From assembly GCA_014913405.1 (NCBI GenBank), contig GCA_014913405.1_3931.1: DNA of 64,000 nucleotides; one strand, written 5' to 3'. A program made the translations under genes and the position numbers. How positions within the stretch are numbered: position 1 is the first letter of the stretch; each line of letters starts with the position of its first letter. This document shows positions 55,749 to 63,168 of the stretch, in pieces. Source of the stretch: a phage. Under the pieces are notes generated by a model. That model made no database searches. It had not been told where the DNA came from and was given only the letters and a program-made list of their open reading frames with translations.

Positions 55749-55859
55749 AATGACCTCAAAGTTATATTAAATTTTGTATTACATTGAGTATAAAAATAAG
55801 CTATAACACCTGACTTGTCAACAGATTTTATAGCTTATTTGGCAGATTTTTTATAAGGC

Positions 55860-56235
55860 TACTGCCATCCTTCCATACCTTACCTAACCAAGCCGAACAT
55901 CACACAACCAGACCGAGCCGTACCCCGCCTTATTAAAAGACCCTGTTTAAAGACCTTTTAAAAAGGTGAGTCTCATTTTAATGTAGCTGAGACTAACTAC
56001 CCTCACCTTACCTCACCTTACCTGACCTGACCCTACCTAACATTACCGTGCCACACCTCACTTAAAAACCCTCTTAAAAGACTCTTAAGTGATGTAATCG
56101 AATTTTAATGTAGCTCCGATTAACTACCCATACCATACCGCACCTAACCGCACCTAACCTGACCTGACCCCACCTAGCTAAACCTTATTAAAAGACCCTG
56201 TTTAAAGACCTTTTAGAAAGGAGCCTCCGAAGAGG
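55860..56235. repeat. Three tandem diverged units of about 120 bp (ACC-rich tract + TTTTAATGTAGCTnnGAnTAACTACCC + palindromic CACTTAAAA...TTAAGTG)
   Basis: Seen directly; related copy at 57340-57480. Confidence 0.7.
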
Positions 56236-56248
56236 CTACCTAGTCAAC

Positions 56249-56689
56249 TTAGAAAGGTTTTCTACGTTGCTTGTTAATGTTAGCTTTCATAGCAGCTAAA
56301 TGGTTTTGCTGTTCAATTAGTCGTGAACGTTCTTGATGGCTAAGTGCCATAGTGTTCACATTCTCAATTGCTTGAGTGGCTTGCTTTAAAGCTCGACCAA
56401 TCTTACCAGACATTTTACGTTTTGCAATAGTTGCTTGATGTTTAGGTTCAACCACACGATAACCAACACCCATTGAAGCAACCAGATAAATCTTCTCTTC
56501 TTTAAGAAGCTTCTCAATAAACTTCTCAAGTCGGTTTAGACGTGTAAGCGCATAAGCCTTCATTTCATCTTCGTACTTAACAATGTCACCTTGATAAGTT
56601 GGCTTCACAATACCTAAGAAGGTATCCATCTCAGAGTGTGATACAGTGTCGCCGTAACTAAACTTTGCTGCTAATGCTTTTGTATTCAT
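56249..56689 (-). CDS. Hypothetical protein
   Basis: ORF 146 aa. Confidence 0.5.
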   Translation of the reverse strand: MNTKALAAKFSYGDTVSHSEMDTFLGIVKPTYQGDIVKYEDEMKAYALTRLNRLEKFIEKLLKEEKIYLVASMGVGYRVVEPKHQATIAKRKMSGKIGRALKQATQAIENVNTMALSHQERSRLIEQQNHLAAMKANINKQRRKPF

Positions 56690-56691
56690 AA

Positions 56692-57297
<606 letters not shown>

Positions 57298-57339
57298 TTA
57301 GTTGATTGTTAAGTTGTTTGTAAAGAACCCTCAACAGAA

Positions 57340-57480
57340 GACTCTTTAGAAACTTGGTAGATTTTTAACGTGGCTACTACCATCCACCCATACCATACCT
57401 TACATTACCCGACCTCACAGAACACTACCGTACCAAACCGTACCGGGCTACACATCACTTAAAAACCCTCTTAGAAGACT
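57340..57480. repeat. Fourth copy of the ACC-rich/palindrome repeat unit
   Basis: CACTTAAAAACCCTCTTAGAAGACTCTTAAGTGATG shared with 56070-56105. Confidence 0.65.
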
Positions 57481-57706
57481 CTTAAGTGATGCTGGTGAGT
57501 ACCCGTTGGTTTATGCTGCTCAGTATACTCACCAAATTTTCTATGTCAACAACTTTTTATATAAAAGTCCTGATAGCTATATGTGTTACAAAACAGAAGA
57601 TTGTGAACAAAACACCCATTGCAAAAGATGTGTCCAAAAGCTTACTTGCAATGTATGACAATACAAAGACAACCAGTATAAACAGAATGACTGTACTTAA
57701 CATAGT

Positions 57707-58843
57707 TTACTCATAATCCCTAATAACTAGCCCGACAGGGAACTGTAAAGAACCCTTACGAGTCATCTTCTGGAACTGTACCGTTAAAGGCTTCCCGATA
57801 AACTCTTCAGGATGTTCAGCAAGATACTGTTTCTTCTCGTGTGTAGTTTTCCATGAGACATCTACAAAGACGTTAGGAAGAGTCTCTACAACGAACTTGC
57901 CATGACCACGTTTATCGGTCTTTACACCAGTCACTTTAAACTCTTCAGTGTGCATCTTCTTGTGTTTAATCAAGAAGTATGAACGGTGACCACACTCGTA
58001 GAAAGATTCTTCAGAGATTGAACGGTACATTGCACCTTCAAACTTAGCTTCAACCCACTTATCATGAGCTTCATCAAACTCTTCCCAAGAGTTTACACGA
58101 CGGGATTTAACAGGAACAACTTTACAGCCGTCTCTAAAGTCATTCAATGGTGAAGTCTCAATAATATCTCTACGCTCAGGCCACGTCTTAGTACTGTCAC
58201 AGATATCATACCAGTAAAACTTGAGTAGATGTCGGTCAGGATTGTCTTCATTTTTAATCATGGAGACAATATCTTCTAAGTCCAACCCATGAGCATAAAC
58301 CTCCCCGTCAAACTCATCAACGTCTGCATGGAGTCTTAACATAGTCATAATGTCAGGTGTTAGCTCAGTAGGTATTTTATAAACAGTATTCTCACGAGAA
58401 TAAGCCGTGAAACTAACTGAATCATCACCTCTTGAAATTCTACAACGGACACCATCAAGTTTTGGTTGAGCATCAGCAGGGAACTTCAGATACTTTGCAT
58501 GGCTAACCTTTGCAGCATCATGAGCAAGCTGTACACCTACCTTCTCAGTATTCTGTGCAGACTCTTTTGTGTAAGCGTAACCTTTACGGTCTACTTGTTT
58601 CTTATACTTAGCAGAAACTTCAAAGAGAGCTTGCTGTTCAGCGTTACGCTCATTCTTTTTACCGATGTTTTTAGGTTCTGCTGTATACTCTTCAAACATC
58701 ATCTTGCCATTTTCTTTACCGTAGGTTGTAATAACTTTGTCACCTACAGCAACACATGACCAGATGTTAAAAGAGCCATCTTTATTTTGTTTGTACAGTA
58801 TTGTCATTTTATTCCTCTGAGTGATACCAAGTATTGCAAGCAT
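57707..58843 (-). CDS. ATP-dependent DNA ligase
   Basis: Motif I KLDGVR, motif III FDGEVY, motif IV EGAMYR, motif V LIKHKK. Confidence 0.8.
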   Translation of the reverse strand: MLAILGITQRNKMTILYKQNKDGSFNIWSCVAVGDKVITTYGKENGKMMFEEYTAEPKNIGKKNERNAEQQALFEVSAKYKKQVDRKGYAYTKESAQNTEKVGVQLAHDAAKVSHAKYLKFPADAQPKLDGVRCRISRGDDSVSFTAYSRENTVYKIPTELTPDIMTMLRLHADVDEFDGEVYAHGLDLEDIVSMIKNEDNPDRHLLKFYWYDICDSTKTWPERRDIIETSPLNDFRDGCKVVPVKSRRVNSWEEFDEAHDKWVEAKFEGAMYRSISEESFYECGHRSYFLIKHKKMHTEEFKVTGVKTDKRGHGKFVVETLPNVFVDVSWKTTHEKKQYLAEHPEEFIGKPLTVQFQKMTRKGSLQFPVGLVIRDYE

Positions 58844-59000
58844 TACATGCGTAAAGCTCTAAGTCGTTTTTATCTGGTTTATGAAAACAGTTCGCTCCGC
58901 AGTGGCAACGAAACGGCTTTCCACCAACTGTCAGGATGAAGGATTGAACCTTTCCATCAGGAGTTCGTACAGCATTTTTATGTTTATCTTCTTTGTTCAT
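58809..59000 (-). CDS. Small Cys4 zinc-ribbon protein (paralog A)
   Basis: FRCHCGANCFHKPD...CNAC; paralog of 59325-59528. Confidence 0.55.
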   Translation of the reverse strand: MNKEDKHKNAVRTPDGKVQSFILTVGGKPFRCHCGANCFHKPDKNDLELYACNACNTWYHSEE

Positions 59001-59073
59001 TTTATCTCTTGTCTCACAAGCTATGCAACCTTTTGAGTAGAAGTAGTGCCAAGCACAACCATCAAAGCTCTCT

Positions 59074-59328
59074 TTAGTGATTAATTGAATTTACTAATTC
59101 CATGTGTTTTTCGTAGAAACATAAACATTTTTTATCTTGCTCATTTATGTAGCTCTCATAAAATTCTGGTGATTCTGGTCTTTCACCAAATGAAATAACC
59201 TTTAGGTAGTACTTCCCATATGTGGAGCTATCTAACCAAGAGTCAAATAGTAATTTCTTAGTATTAGTCTTTGGAGGTATTACCAAACTTTTCTCATACA
59301 ATTCCTTCATTTCTTGAGTTATCTTCAT
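59074..59328 (-). CDS. Hypothetical protein
   Basis: ORF 84 aa. Confidence 0.45.
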   Translation of the reverse strand: MKITQEMKELYEKSLVIPPKTNTKKLLFDSWLDSSTYGKYYLKVISFGERPESPEFYESYINEQDKKCLCFYEKHMELVNSINH

Positions 59329-59528
59329 TGCATATCCTTAATCTTACCTAAGAACCTTACCCCGCAGTTATTACACTCGTATATGTCTAACTTTGTGTTA
59401 TCAGGTTTGTGAAAACAGTTTGACCCACAACGACACCGGAATAGTTTACCATCAACACGAAGAATGAACGTCTCAAGCTCACCCTCTTCTGTAAGAACTG
59501 CGTTCTTCAATTTATCTCCTACAGTCAT
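59325..59528 (-). CDS. Small Cys4 zinc-ribbon protein (paralog B)
   Basis: FRCRCGSNCFHKPD...CNNC. Confidence 0.55.
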   Translation of the reverse strand: MTVGDKLKNAVLTEEGELETFILRVDGKLFRCRCGSNCFHKPDNTKLDIYECNNCGVRFLGKIKDMQ

Positions 59529-59830
59529 TTTCTTTTACCACCAATCTCTACGTCGATAACTTGAACATCACCAGCAACATCAAACTTATGAATGATACTT
59601 TCCACAGTGTAAGTCCAACCCTCAATGCGAACCAATTCACCTTCTCGTGGGACGATTGGGTTACGTTGAGCTACGGTTGTAGTGGAGTGAACAACATCAT
59701 AACAATAGGTATAGTTGACTAGGACTTCCATCGTAAAAACCTCACTCAATAACCGTAGTGTGTGATTGACTATTTTTACCATATCTATAAGATGTTGTTG
59801 TTTGAGAGTTTGGACATCTGACAACAACAA
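59525..59830 (-). CDS. Hypothetical protein (start uncertain; overlaps next ORF)
   Basis: ORF 101 aa. Confidence 0.35.
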   Translation of the reverse strand: MLLSDVQTLKQQHLIDMVKIVNHTLRLLSEVFTMEVLVNYTYCYDVVHSTTTVAQRNPIVPREGELVRIEGWTYTVESIIHKFDVAGDVQVIDVEIGGKRK

Positions 59831-60002
59831 TATCTGTGCTTATTGCATCCCCATTTAACTTATAGACTTTGCAATCTTGCATCTCTGGTGGGAGGCTATA
59901 AGAAGCGTTTTTGTCCTCGTAAGATGGATTACAGCCAGATATAAAGATAACACCAAGCACAATTACTGCTTTCCACATAATACTTCTCCTATTACTGTTC
60001 AC
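59742..60002 (-). CDS. Putative lipoprotein
   Basis: Signal peptide with ISGC lipobox-like motif. Confidence 0.4.
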   Translation of the reverse strand: MNSNRRSIMWKAVIVLGVIFISGCNPSYEDKNASYSLPPEMQDCKVYKLNGDAISTDIVVVRCPNSQTTTSYRYGKNSQSHTTVIE

Positions 60003-60164
60003 GATGTTCTACTTCTCTGTACGTTCGTCGATAGTCTATAATAAGTTGTGCTAATTCGTTGCTTTTAACATTCGAACGTAGCAGTTGCCAATCAAAACCT
60101 TTACCGACTCTTCCATATAAACTAAATAATTTTACTTTGCGTTTCATTTTGGTATCCCCAATAC

Positions 60165-60377
60165 TCAGAGGTCAATGCTAATACGTTCACCCTTAAGGAC
60201 TCCTGTACGGTCCCTTGCAATCTTACCGTCAACAATAAGGATGTGTGCAGACCTTAAAGATTCACTATTAAAACCTTTTACGAACTTACTAGGCATCACC
60301 ACAATAAGCATCTCCTGAATCAACTCTGGAGTATAGCAGTTGTCGTGAAGTTGCTGAATAACGTCTGAAAGTGTCAT
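60165..60377 (-). CDS. Hypothetical small protein
   Basis: ORF 70 aa. Confidence 0.4.
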   Translation of the reverse strand: MTLSDVIQQLHDNCYTPELIQEMLIVVMPSKFVKGFNSESLRSAHILIVDGKIARDRTGVLKGERISIDL

Positions 60378-60438
60378 GAGACCTCCTATACAAGATACAG
60401 TATAAGGTACTCTTCCATGAGCACCTTGTCAATACTAA

Positions 60439-63168
60439 TTAGTGTACTTCAAGCCAGCTTTTACCAACCTTACCAGTACCAGTTACCAGTGTTTCACTCT
60501 TTAGTCCTAAGTTCTTAGAGGCTTGCCCGTAATACCAATCAGTGACAGCCTTCACCTCTGCCGTCATACTTTCTGGACATTCCCAACTCGTCTCATCGTG
60601 ATAGGAGCACAATAAACGAGCACCTATAGCTGGTTTGCGACCGTTCAACTTCATCAAACCTTCGTCAATCATACGACGGCAAGCAAGGTTAATTGCCTCG
60701 TTCTGAATCTGACTTTCCGAACCCATGAGCAAATAATTCAATAGCTTATGCGGAGATTTACACCACAACCAAGCTCCAGCAACCTTTACAAAACCTCCTT
60801 TAGAGATTGCAGCAGTCTTACCAAACACCTCTTCAAGTGCCTTTTTAGTTGCTTTGTAGTCAGCTTCCAAGTCATCTAGCAGCTTCTTAATTTTAGGCAA
60901 ACGAATAAAGTAAGTCTGTTTAGTCAGCGCACCTTCCTGAGTAGTTGCAGCTTTAATCGTCTTAGCAAACTTTTCATCACCTGCACCGAACAGTAGTGCA
61001 TAGATACCATTCTTAGCTTTCTTACGACCTTTGCTAATCTCATGAAGAAGATTCTCATCCTGAGTAGCTCGACAAGTCAAGATATCCTGCTCATCATTCA
61101 AGCTAAAGTAAATACTGTTCAGTGTATGTGCATCAGTCCCTGAATAGACAACGTACAGGTCATTCTCAGAGTCATAGCGAAGGTACTTATCAATCTCTGG
61201 GTTTAGGTACTCATCAAAATGTTTGCAGTAATAGCGTCCATCTTCTTGACGAATAAACTCAATCTCTTCTTTACCTTGCGTTACCGCTTTGGTGAAGTCT
61301 TTGTCACCCATAAAGTTACAAAGGAGAACTAGCTGGGCTGAGTTCATGTCTACAGAGACAACATTAGTACCTTCTTCACAAATCCACACTGCCCTCATTG
61401 GTTCCCCATAGACAGCAGCACCAGACGGTACGTTTACAATACCATATTGTGTCATACGTCCAGTTGAAGTACCAAATACCATTGCACCAGCACTAAGGCG
61501 ACCATCTGGACGAATCTGGTTCAGCCAACCTTTCTCGTCATCCTTTGAGTTCTCAATAGTTCTGCGTCTGTGCATCAAAGTGTAGTACTTAGCAATCTTC
61601 TGTCCAAGCTCACCTTCAATCGTATCATAAGATGATTCAGTAAGTTTTGGTGAAGTACGGATTAAGCAAGGTTCAAGCAAATCTGTGTATTTCTTCACGG
61701 ACCAGTTATGCTCAATGTACTGAACACCTTCATGTTCAACATAACTCAAACCACACCGCTCAACCATTTCCTGCCACTTAGGATGTTTTGTAATCATCTT
61801 TTTATTGTCTTTGAAACGACAAACTTTGACAGGGCGACCATCTGAGTCTTTCTTGTAGTTCCAGTCATCTGGAATCCAACCAACTGATTTCAAGTAGTCT
61901 TTAACAACTGCTACCTGAGTCATGCGAGAAACTTCGAACTCAATTGGTGTATATGGTGCATCAATCAAACCTGTGTAGCGACTTGACTCAAGTTCAAAGT
62001 GGTTAACAACGTGACTGTTATAGTACTTCACAGTTTTGACTGTTTTCACTGGCTTCCAGTCTTTGCATTTCTTACCAATCTTTGCATTCAACTCATTGCA
62101 AATTGCACGAGCATCCTTCATTGCTACAAAGCCTTCCTTGTACTCTTCACCAGTTACAGAGTTGGTTGGGGTGTAGCAATTTCTCTTTTCAATGTTAAAA
62201 ATCTTTGTAGTTGGCTTACCAAATGGCTTGATTTCGTATGTCTGCATCTCACCGTTACGTACCTGCTGACGGTACTTTGTCTTAGGGTACTTGGTAATTC
62301 TCTTCAGTCCATCTGCATGACCGAATGCTTCAACATACTCATTCCAAGCTTTTACAAACTCTTCTCCAGTGACTTTACCTTTGGTCTTAATAGTTGGAGG
62401 TAGATGTGGTTCAACCTCTGAAGCAAGCTCATTAGTCAACTTGTCAAGCTCCTTTACATGGAACTCCATAAGCTCCTTATCAGCTTTCCAACCATTGATA
62501 GCTTGTTGACTCATCCAGAAAGATGTTTCTTTAGCTCGCATATAGGTTTCATAAGTATCTATGCCACACTTCTTAAGCTTGAGATACTCATTATCAAGTG
62601 CCCGTTTAGTTTTGGCGTTAATACGGATATCTTCTACAACACGAGTGAAGATTTCTGCATTCCACACACCCCAATGTTCAATCTCTGGTTTACGAACACC
62701 AACACGAGCACCCCATGCAGCCAAGCCATGAGCACCTTTATAGCCTTTTGGAGTTGGCCTATCCATCCACTGAACACGAGACTGAATAAGAGAATCCTGA
62801 AAGAAATTACTCCACGGCTTACATTTTGGATTATCAAAGTTCCATAAATCCGGTGCAATGTGATTGAAAACCCACCAGTCATAACCGAGGCCATTATGGA
62901 TACAAAGTCGTTTTGCCTTTAACGCAAACTCAACACCTTCACGTAAGCCACCCTTAATGTACTTAGTGTACTTGTGACCGAGGATAGGCTCATCTGTAAA
63001 GACCCATACAGGTGGCTCTTCATCGTCAGATTTATAGTCTGCAAAGGCCATTACGTGAACTTTAGTGAACTCAAGGAGTAAACCATCAGTTTCTGTATCA
63101 CCAACTAAATGTAAGTTTTTAAAATCTACGTTTTCCATTTTTACTCCCTCTAAAATCATTAACCTCAT
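60439..63168 (-). CDS. Family A DNA polymerase with 3'-5' exonuclease domain
   Basis: Exo I DTETDG; Pol motif A DMNSAQLVLL; motif B KNGIYALLFG; motif C YHDE. Confidence 0.85.
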   Translation of the reverse strand: MRLMILEGVKMENVDFKNLHLVGDTETDGLLLEFTKVHVMAFADYKSDDEEPPVWVFTDEPILGHKYTKYIKGGLREGVEFALKAKRLCIHNGLGYDWWVFNHIAPDLWNFDNPKCKPWSNFFQDSLIQSRVQWMDRPTPKGYKGAHGLAAWGARVGVRKPEIEHWGVWNAEIFTRVVEDIRINAKTKRALDNEYLKLKKCGIDTYETYMRAKETSFWMSQQAINGWKADKELMEFHVKELDKLTNELASEVEPHLPPTIKTKGKVTGEEFVKAWNEYVEAFGHADGLKRITKYPKTKYRQQVRNGEMQTYEIKPFGKPTTKIFNIEKRNCYTPTNSVTGEEYKEGFVAMKDARAICNELNAKIGKKCKDWKPVKTVKTVKYYNSHVVNHFELESSRYTGLIDAPYTPIEFEVSRMTQVAVVKDYLKSVGWIPDDWNYKKDSDGRPVKVCRFKDNKKMITKHPKWQEMVERCGLSYVEHEGVQYIEHNWSVKKYTDLLEPCLIRTSPKLTESSYDTIEGELGQKIAKYYTLMHRRRTIENSKDDEKGWLNQIRPDGRLSAGAMVFGTSTGRMTQYGIVNVPSGAAVYGEPMRAVWICEEGTNVVSVDMNSAQLVLLCNFMGDKDFTKAVTQGKEEIEFIRQEDGRYYCKHFDEYLNPEIDKYLRYDSENDLYVVYSGTDAHTLNSIYFSLNDEQDILTCRATQDENLLHEISKGRKKAKNGIYALLFGAGDEKFAKTIKAATTQEGALTKQTYFIRLPKIKKLLDDLEADYKATKKALEEVFGKTAAISKGGFVKVAGAWLWCKSPHKLLNYLLMGSESQIQNEAINLACRRMIDEGLMKLNGRKPAIGARLLCSYHDETSWECPESMTAEVKAVTDWYYGQASKNLGLKSETLVTGTGKVGKSWLEVH

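Follow-up and report, generated by a model that had tools for sequence, protein, structure and literature searches.

Two small genes on the minus strand of a 64,000-nucleotide (nt) stretch of phage DNA (contig GCA_014913405.1_3931.1; hereafter the window) encode homologous zinc-ribbon mini-proteins of the family phrog_5768, and sequence comparison suggests that the two are diverged alleles or old paralogues, brought together or kept together. Copy A, of 63 amino acids (aa), lies at 58809..59000 and copy B, of 67 aa, at 59325..59528; they stand on the same strand, 325 nt apart, with a gene for an 84-aa protein between them. The original prediction described them as duplicated Cys4 mini-proteins in a replication block, possibly nucleic-acid-binding regulators, and the open reading frame (ORF) list contains the three minus-strand ORFs of 63, 84 and 67 aa as it described. 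They lie in an accessory slot that is prone to recombination and is bordered by the phrog_4427 gene and a DNA ligase gene; the two-copy state is a rare configuration of this slot. The pair is genuine, but as accessory content of a phage it is ordinary.

BLASTP aligns A and B without gaps over 59 residues (32 identities, 54%; 69% positives; E = 6e-25), reproducing the common consensus string that had been proposed for the two products. Counted by segment, the identities are 17/31 (N-terminal part), 10/12 (core) and 5/18 (C-terminal part). The two products thus resemble each other in more than the spacing of their cysteines, against a doubt that had been raised with the prediction. At the DNA level the copies are about 60% identical, and an alignment of A, B and mio_68 shows that they have in common an 11-mer, AACTGTTTTCA, which spans the codons for N37-C38-F39-H40 (58882..58892 in A and 59410..59420 in B, both on the minus strand). 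Each copy has five cysteines, at positions 32, 34, 38, 52 and 55. No third copy was found within the window by tblastn.

The word "duplicated" in the original prediction needs qualifying: A and B are true homologues but not the outcome of a recent in-place duplication, because members of the family in other phage families stand at least as close to them as they do to each other. Copy A has 55-65% identity with homologues in phages of Klebsiella (Stephanstirmvirinae) and Erwinia (Kolesnikvirus, Chaseviridae) and in Pseudomonas prophages. The C-terminal half of B matches family member P0195, from a 145-kb contig resembling Klebsiella phage KP13-26, at 11/18 positions, versus 5/18 for A. A recent tandem duplicate was rejected because the copies, at 54% identity, are not each other's closest relatives.

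Both copies are intact, purifying selection acts on them, and their translation is coupled to that of the neighbouring genes. The start codon of B overlaps the stop codon of the phrog_4427 gene (ATGA, 59525-59528), the ATG of the 84-aa gene overlaps the stop codon of B in the same way (ATGA, 59325-59328), and the TAA of A (58811-58809) ends 1 nt before the ligase ATG (58807), with the ligase Shine-Dalgarno sequence GAGGA lying within the last codons of A. Among five or six phages A has only synonymous changes (proportion of nonsynonymous differences, pN, 0; proportion of synonymous differences, pS, 0.03-0.14), and its protein is 100% identical in wV8, DE17, pSJ21, EC6 and BPS15S6 despite 1-5 synonymous differences. 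For B, compared in five phages, pN is 0.012-0.031 against a pS of 0.07-0.22, giving pN/pS ratios of about 0.07-0.19. Every residue that is invariant in the family, including the four-Cys signature, is kept in both. Because of this selection and coupling neither copy is a pseudogene, the other doubt that had been attached to the prediction, and we rejected the idea of a pseudogene copy on the stop/start coupling, the pN/pS ratios and the retained invariant residues. That one copy might be a redundant, non-expressed or degenerating recent tandem duplicate of the other is suggested by two homologous genes lying so close together on one strand, and by the fact that one copy or none suffices in most relatives. 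Against it stand the low identity between the copies (54% in protein, about 60% in DNA, no closer than to homologues from other families), the invariant residues and coupled start sites kept in both, the excess of synonymous over nonsynonymous change in both across five phages, and the persistence of the order B-84aa-A in four isolates (pSJ21, DE17, EC6 and BPS15S6), with an indication of it in KEP2. We regard this explanation as very improbable and already largely refuted.

The family to which A and B belong, phrog_5768 of PHROGs v4, has no functional annotation. A matches its 66-position profile over residues 1-63 (E = 1.6e-40) and B over residues 1-65 (E = 1.2e-33). A profile search of 1.84 billion cluster representatives found 526 family clusters at E ≤ 1e-3 and 112 at E ≤ 1e-10, counted at 50% identity, and all 148 of the 148 homologues examined match phrog_5768. 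Searches of Pfam, NCBIfam and PADLOC returned nothing on the core domain of A, B or their homologues (for Pfam, A, B and 146 homologues). Membership in zf-PARP (PF00645) was rejected for want of a Pfam match in the same 148 proteins and because the ligand pattern differs; Lar, TraR/DksA and defence-system proteins were rejected because none gave a core-domain match in the three databases. A sequence-profile search of the PDB gave only spurious C2H2-knuckle matches (E > 0.1), and the family domain has no significant structural neighbour.

Conservation was assessed in alignments of 157, 58 and 98 sequences. C32, C34, C52 and C55 are invariant or nearly so throughout, and G27, N37, F39, H40, P42 and N53 are nearly invariant; the conserved core reads G-K-x-F-R-C-x-C-G-x-N-x-F-H-K-P-D, within a family consensus of PV...DG....F.....GK.FRC.CGCNVFHKPD....L.LY.CN.C...Y. 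The label Cys4 needs correcting in that each copy in the window has a fifth cysteine besides the four conserved in the family. Most family members have Cys at position 36 and Val at position 38, and A and B follow a minority pattern with Ala or Ser at 36 and Cys at 38, so the fifth cysteine is evidently not required. The first cysteine pair has the spacing C-x-C, which is atypical for a zinc ribbon.

Structure prediction, which the original prediction had proposed as a check, gave a small, beta-rich, zinc-ribbon-like fold. AlphaFold2 reached a predicted local distance difference test score (pLDDT) of 72 with 8 sequences, and a pLDDT of 87.6 with a predicted template modelling score (pTM) of 0.71 with 98 sequences. 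In the model C52 and C55 lie in a beta-hairpin turn and C32 and C34 just after a strand. The protein is most likely a single domain of about 55 residues in which, as modelled, C32/C34 and C52/C55 would hold one zinc ion. "Zinc ribbon" is the best structural description that the ligand pattern and the predicted model offer, and A and B probably belong to a new family of this fold class. In predicted isoelectric point (pI) the domain is near-neutral to acidic, with a median of 6.45 and values above 8.5 in only 11% of sequences; those of A and B are 7.67 and 7.61.

Comparison with related phages indicates how the pair is arranged and how it varies. By its matches the window is from a Felix O1-like phage of the genus Felixounavirus: megablast of positions 57000-61000 found 260 phage records at 80-99% identity, nearly all of them from Felix O1-like myophages (Ounavirinae, Felixounavirus) that infect Escherichia, Salmonella or Shigella. 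In Salmonella phage vB_SenM-pSJ21 copy B and the 84-aa protein are identical to those of the window, and the genes stand in the same order. On the minus strand this order is polymerase, small genes, phrog_4427 gene, B, 84-aa gene, A and ligase. The phrog_4427 gene upstream (59525..59731, minus strand; 68 aa from the ATG used in relatives; phrog match, 257 phage records) and the ligase gene downstream (57707..58807, minus strand; 366 aa from the ATG at 58807, the start used in wV8) are the conserved borders of the slot.

Between these borders relatives show a range of states. The order B-84aa-A is confirmed in pSJ21, DE17, EC6 and BPS15S6, and is indicated in KEP2 by a 100% identical 84-aa gene and coverage of the whole query region. 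In wV8 the slot holds a 52-aa gene, present in 35 records, followed by A, and in vB_EcoM_E9 A directly adjoins the phrog_4427 gene, judging from coordinates. Phage mio has a single hybrid gene, whose N-terminal part (28/31) and core (12/12) are those of B and whose C-terminal part (18/18) is that of A; MBP4696116 is a hybrid of the same type, and such B/A hybrids fall in a 60-80% identity band that comprises 83 records. A third type of N-terminal half is joined to the C-terminal half of A in a Felixounavirus contig (P0005, same position) and to a B-like C-terminal half in EC106. The zinc-ribbon genes of mio and Barry (L004:3001-3219 and L057:701-916 in our comparison stretches) have lost their stop codon (TAA to AAA in mio), so that the 72-aa product is encoded by an ORF running 26 nt into the ligase ORF in another frame. 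L27, examined over a 5.2-kb ligase locus, has no zinc ribbon and carries a 49%-identical homologue of the 84-aa gene. N- and C-terminal halves of at least three allele types thus reassort at the conserved core (CG.NCFHKPD), and in the DNA alignment the mio crossover lies inside AACTGTTTTCA, the 11-mer coding for N37-H40 that A and B have in common. Recombination between B and A at this 11-mer would remove the 84-aa gene and leave the common B/A hybrid. The two-copy state itself may have been put together from diverged alleles, or it may go back to an old duplication.

Many relatives appear to do without the gene altogether. The phrog_4427 flank is found in 257 records and the zinc ribbon in 226, at least 46 of which are not Felixounavirus by organism name (phages of Erwinia, Klebsiella and Aeromonas and two further names). 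This leaves at most about 180 Felixounavirus-like zinc-ribbon records against 257 flank records, and by this comparison of record totals, which is not a per-genome check, roughly 30% of relatives are without a zinc ribbon. The gene is therefore dispensable, and for that reason the protein is not a subunit of the ligase. Taken together, the zinc ribbon is predicted to be expressed within the polymerase-ligase gene string and appears to be non-essential for the phage lineage and recombinationally mobile.

Outside Felixounavirus the family is found in varied settings. In Kolesnikvirus the gene follows rIIA/rIIB, overlaps the gene for a DUF4326 protein and stands two genes upstream of polynucleotide kinase. 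The Chaseviridae have it without annotation, as one of several small early genes and about 1 kb away from an SSB gene, and its neighbours in Klebsiella phages are a methyltransferase-like protein, an unknown 219-aa protein and a SIR2 protein. Large metagenomic phages carry it within extended arrays of small genes of unknown function. The early-left operon is its place in Pseudomonas and Cupriavidus prophages and in several IMG/VR contigs, where it stands between a CI-type repressor and genes for Erf/RecT, YqaJ exonuclease and SSB. Its immediate neighbours in four other phage groups are mutually unrelated. When we clustered all ORFs within 5 kb at 35 non-redundant loci, the only recurrent neighbours were SSB (9 of the 35 loci) and lambdoid immunity and recombination genes; no conserved partner gene across phage families emerged among the 35. 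The domain is also found at the C-terminus of a longer protein in 76 of 157 representatives, with N-terminal extensions that fall into 72 unrelated clusters and offer no common functional clue. Single Pfam matches among the 148 full-length homologues were to MazG-like dATP/dGTP pyrophosphohydrolase, NUDIX, Lar, Tad2-like and DUF2934 domains. The zinc ribbon is C-terminal to Lar-like, MazG-like and NUDIX domains in one family member each (P0015, P0060, P0069 and others), P0015 carrying the Lar-like motif in its N-terminal extension.

We weakly favour, at a probability of roughly 45%, the reading that the zinc ribbon is a binding module rather than an enzyme and belongs to the dispensable accessory or host-interaction class. 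The class is favoured by the patchy presence, allelic mosaicism and copy-number variation of the gene, by its location among arrayed small early genes and in early-left operons of the lambdoid type, and by the acidic-to-neutral charge of a domain that is attached C-terminally to many N-terminal parts unrelated to one another. No catalytic signature is present in the protein. It would be a stoichiometric, small, zinc-stabilised binding module, made early in infection and docking on some conserved macromolecular partner, and we would tentatively place it outside the core replication factors and DNA-binding regulators. The contact surface would likely be the conserved N-x-F-H-K-P-D loop together with N53. 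The tolerance of unrelated N-terminal extensions suggests that it can also act as the docking part at the C-terminus of a larger protein.

The proposal that A and B are nucleic-acid-binding regulators found no backing in a match to any nucleic-acid-binding family or a significant structural neighbour, the domain is near-neutral to acidic, and the gene is missing in about 30% of the relatives that keep the same ligase and polymerase. Our results neither support nor exclude a nucleic-acid-binding role. At its most concrete, the idea is the main rival of the favoured reading, and the protein would be a DNA-transaction cofactor that binds nicks, DNA ends, single-stranded DNA, the ligase or recombination proteins, acting as partner of the co-translated ligase much as a zinc finger is carried in cis by eukaryotic DNA ligase III. 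This is conceivable in view of the tight coupling to the ligase gene and of the kinase, recombination and SSB genes found nearby in one phage or another. We consider it less likely than the favoured reading, given that the gene is dispensable, that the linkage to ligase is absent outside one genus, that the charge is near-neutral to acidic and that no match to a DNA-binding family was obtained. A broader version, which we consider improbable, makes phrog_5768 a widespread docking module for a conserved component of DNA-end metabolism, such as a nick or DNA end, SSB or a RecBCD-type nuclease. If it were true, the placement beside ligase, polynucleotide kinase and Erf/RecT-exonuclease-SSB and the fusions would all serve the protection or processing of DNA ends, and the family would constitute a new class of phage proteins, accessory to DNA ends or directed against nucleases. 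The two alleles in this phage would then differ in specificity.

A still closer tie to the ligase is implied by GenBank, where the 67-72 aa zinc-ribbon gene is labelled "DNA ligase" in several Felixounavirus records (DE17, pSJ21, mio and others; the labelled orthologues of window positions 59325-59528 are L002:3225-3428, L003:3001-3204 and L004:3001-3219). Taken at face value, the label would make the zinc ribbon a small N-terminal piece or subunit of DNA ligase, by way of a split gene or a frameshift fusion, and the 26-nt run of the mio and Barry zinc-ribbon ORFs into the ligase ORF might seem to agree. No ligase domain was found in A or B by Pfam even at E ≤ 1, while the neighbouring 366/378-aa protein does match, and there is no K-x-D-G motif. 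With both adenylation and OB domains the ligase is whole by itself, and it is in a different frame from the zinc ribbon; family members elsewhere are not beside ligases, and L27 has a ligase and no zinc ribbon. According to the mio record the name was copied by BLAST from the entry for phage BPS17W1. We therefore rejected the ligase fragment or subunit, for which hardly any probability remains, and the label on copy B orthologues is a propagated annotation error.

The surroundings of the slot only partly deserve the name of a replication block. Ligase and polymerase do flank it, but the run of genes separating these two consists of small accessory genes and contains no replication gene. The family A DNA polymerase (909 aa) is at 60439..63168 on the minus strand, and the small genes that follow it include phrog_4230, phrog_2381 and phrog_902, one of which has a lipobox-like N-terminus. 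This is the phrog_902 protein (59742-59978, minus strand; ORF listed as 59742..60002), whose N-terminus, MWKAVIVLGVIFISGC, resembles a lipoprotein signal peptide with a lipobox; it could be an accessory gene of the membrane or superinfection-exclusion type. The ligase was identified by its Pfam matches (DNA_ligase_A_M, E = 2e-09, and DNA_ligase_OB_2) and by the annotation of relatives; after related phages, its nearest homologues are reported in the Felix O1 genome paper to be kinetoplastid ligases from Trypanosoma, Leishmania and Crithidia (PMC3185647). The program-made ORF starts are longer than those used in relatives, at 58843 rather than 58807 for the ligase (378 versus 366 aa) and at 59830 rather than 59731 for the phrog_4427 gene (101 versus 68 aa); with the shorter starts the overlap between A and the ligase disappears, as does that between the phrog_4427 and phrog_902 ORFs.

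The gene between A and B (59074..59328, minus strand) encodes an 84-aa ORFan of phrog_32421. Its homologues are in 12 phage records, nine at 91-100% identity and three at about 48%; pSJ21, DE17, EC6, BPS15S6 and KEP2, the five of the nine that were retrieved or searched, have it in the order B-84aa-A. The protein forms only 2 clusters in a collection of 5.8 billion proteins, with no match in Pfam, NCBIfam or PADLOC. The 73-nt spacer between it and A (59001..59073, listed on the minus strand) contains no promoter-like or terminator-like site and has an RNA fold z-score of 0.52, which is nothing unusual; over 57000-61000 the promoter and terminator scan gave results at chance level.

Some further differences were seen around this region. 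The polymerase is one intact ORF in the window, and in pSJ21, L27 and a Logan contig it is annotated or called as two pieces, with an HNH endonuclease gene after them; the stretch retrieved for BPS15S6 covers only the 3' polymerase piece and the HNH gene (comparison stretches L003:1-1921, L016:1-1421, L009:1-627 and L053:1-1892). Direct repeats of about 115 nt, three of them in tandem at 55847-56216, recurring about every 128 nt, and a fourth 1.27 kb off at 57372-57486, bracket the genes at 56249-57294 and correspond in position to the "DR_4" repeats annotated in wV8. In the KhF3 record a "direct repeat sequence4", inside the region matching 57000-61000, is given as a possible StbAB binding site.

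The value of these findings is modest, and they open no long-standing question. They delimit a large, strongly conserved phage domain that has neither a Pfam entry nor a solved structure, they correct the "DNA ligase" label that has been propagated on 67-72 aa genes, and they provide a small, clean case in which recombination at a conserved motif, between tandem homologues and between allelic halves, makes hybrid genes and brings gain or loss of an ORFan. The Felix O1 genome paper (PMC3185647) and a comparative Felixounavirus study (PMC8300805) both cover the ligase and polymerase and make no mention of the small genes A and B, and literature text searches found no paper on the phrog_5768 family. 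Because Felix O1-like phages are used in typing and biocontrol of Salmonella and E. coli, describing this domain as a family is a reasonable aim.

Among known proteins, the zinc ribbons of TFIIS, Rpb9 and TFS (RpoM) gave similarity scores below significance. They differ from phrog_5768 in having C-x-x-C rather than C-x-C as the first pair and no counterpart of the N-x-F-H-K-P-D loop, and the phage domain has an extra N-terminal beta-hairpin and lacks the acidic catalytic hairpin of TFIIS. In lambda and P22, the early-left operon position holds dispensable host-modulating genes (lambda Ral, Kil, CIII and Gam). The family member in Pseudomonas and Cupriavidus prophages has no sequence or structural relationship to these four proteins and occupies the same genomic position as the lambda accessory genes, which is only a hint. 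The zf-PARP finger of eukaryotic DNA ligase III (C-x2-C...H-x2-C), which is fused to its ligase, is a functional analogue only: phrog_5768 has the pattern C-x-C...C-x2-C, is a separate polypeptide and is associated with a ligase in one phage genus only. What the two have in common is a zinc-binding module, putative in the phage, that is linked with an ATP-dependent ligase, and the finger would be the model to follow if the phage protein were a nick sensor.

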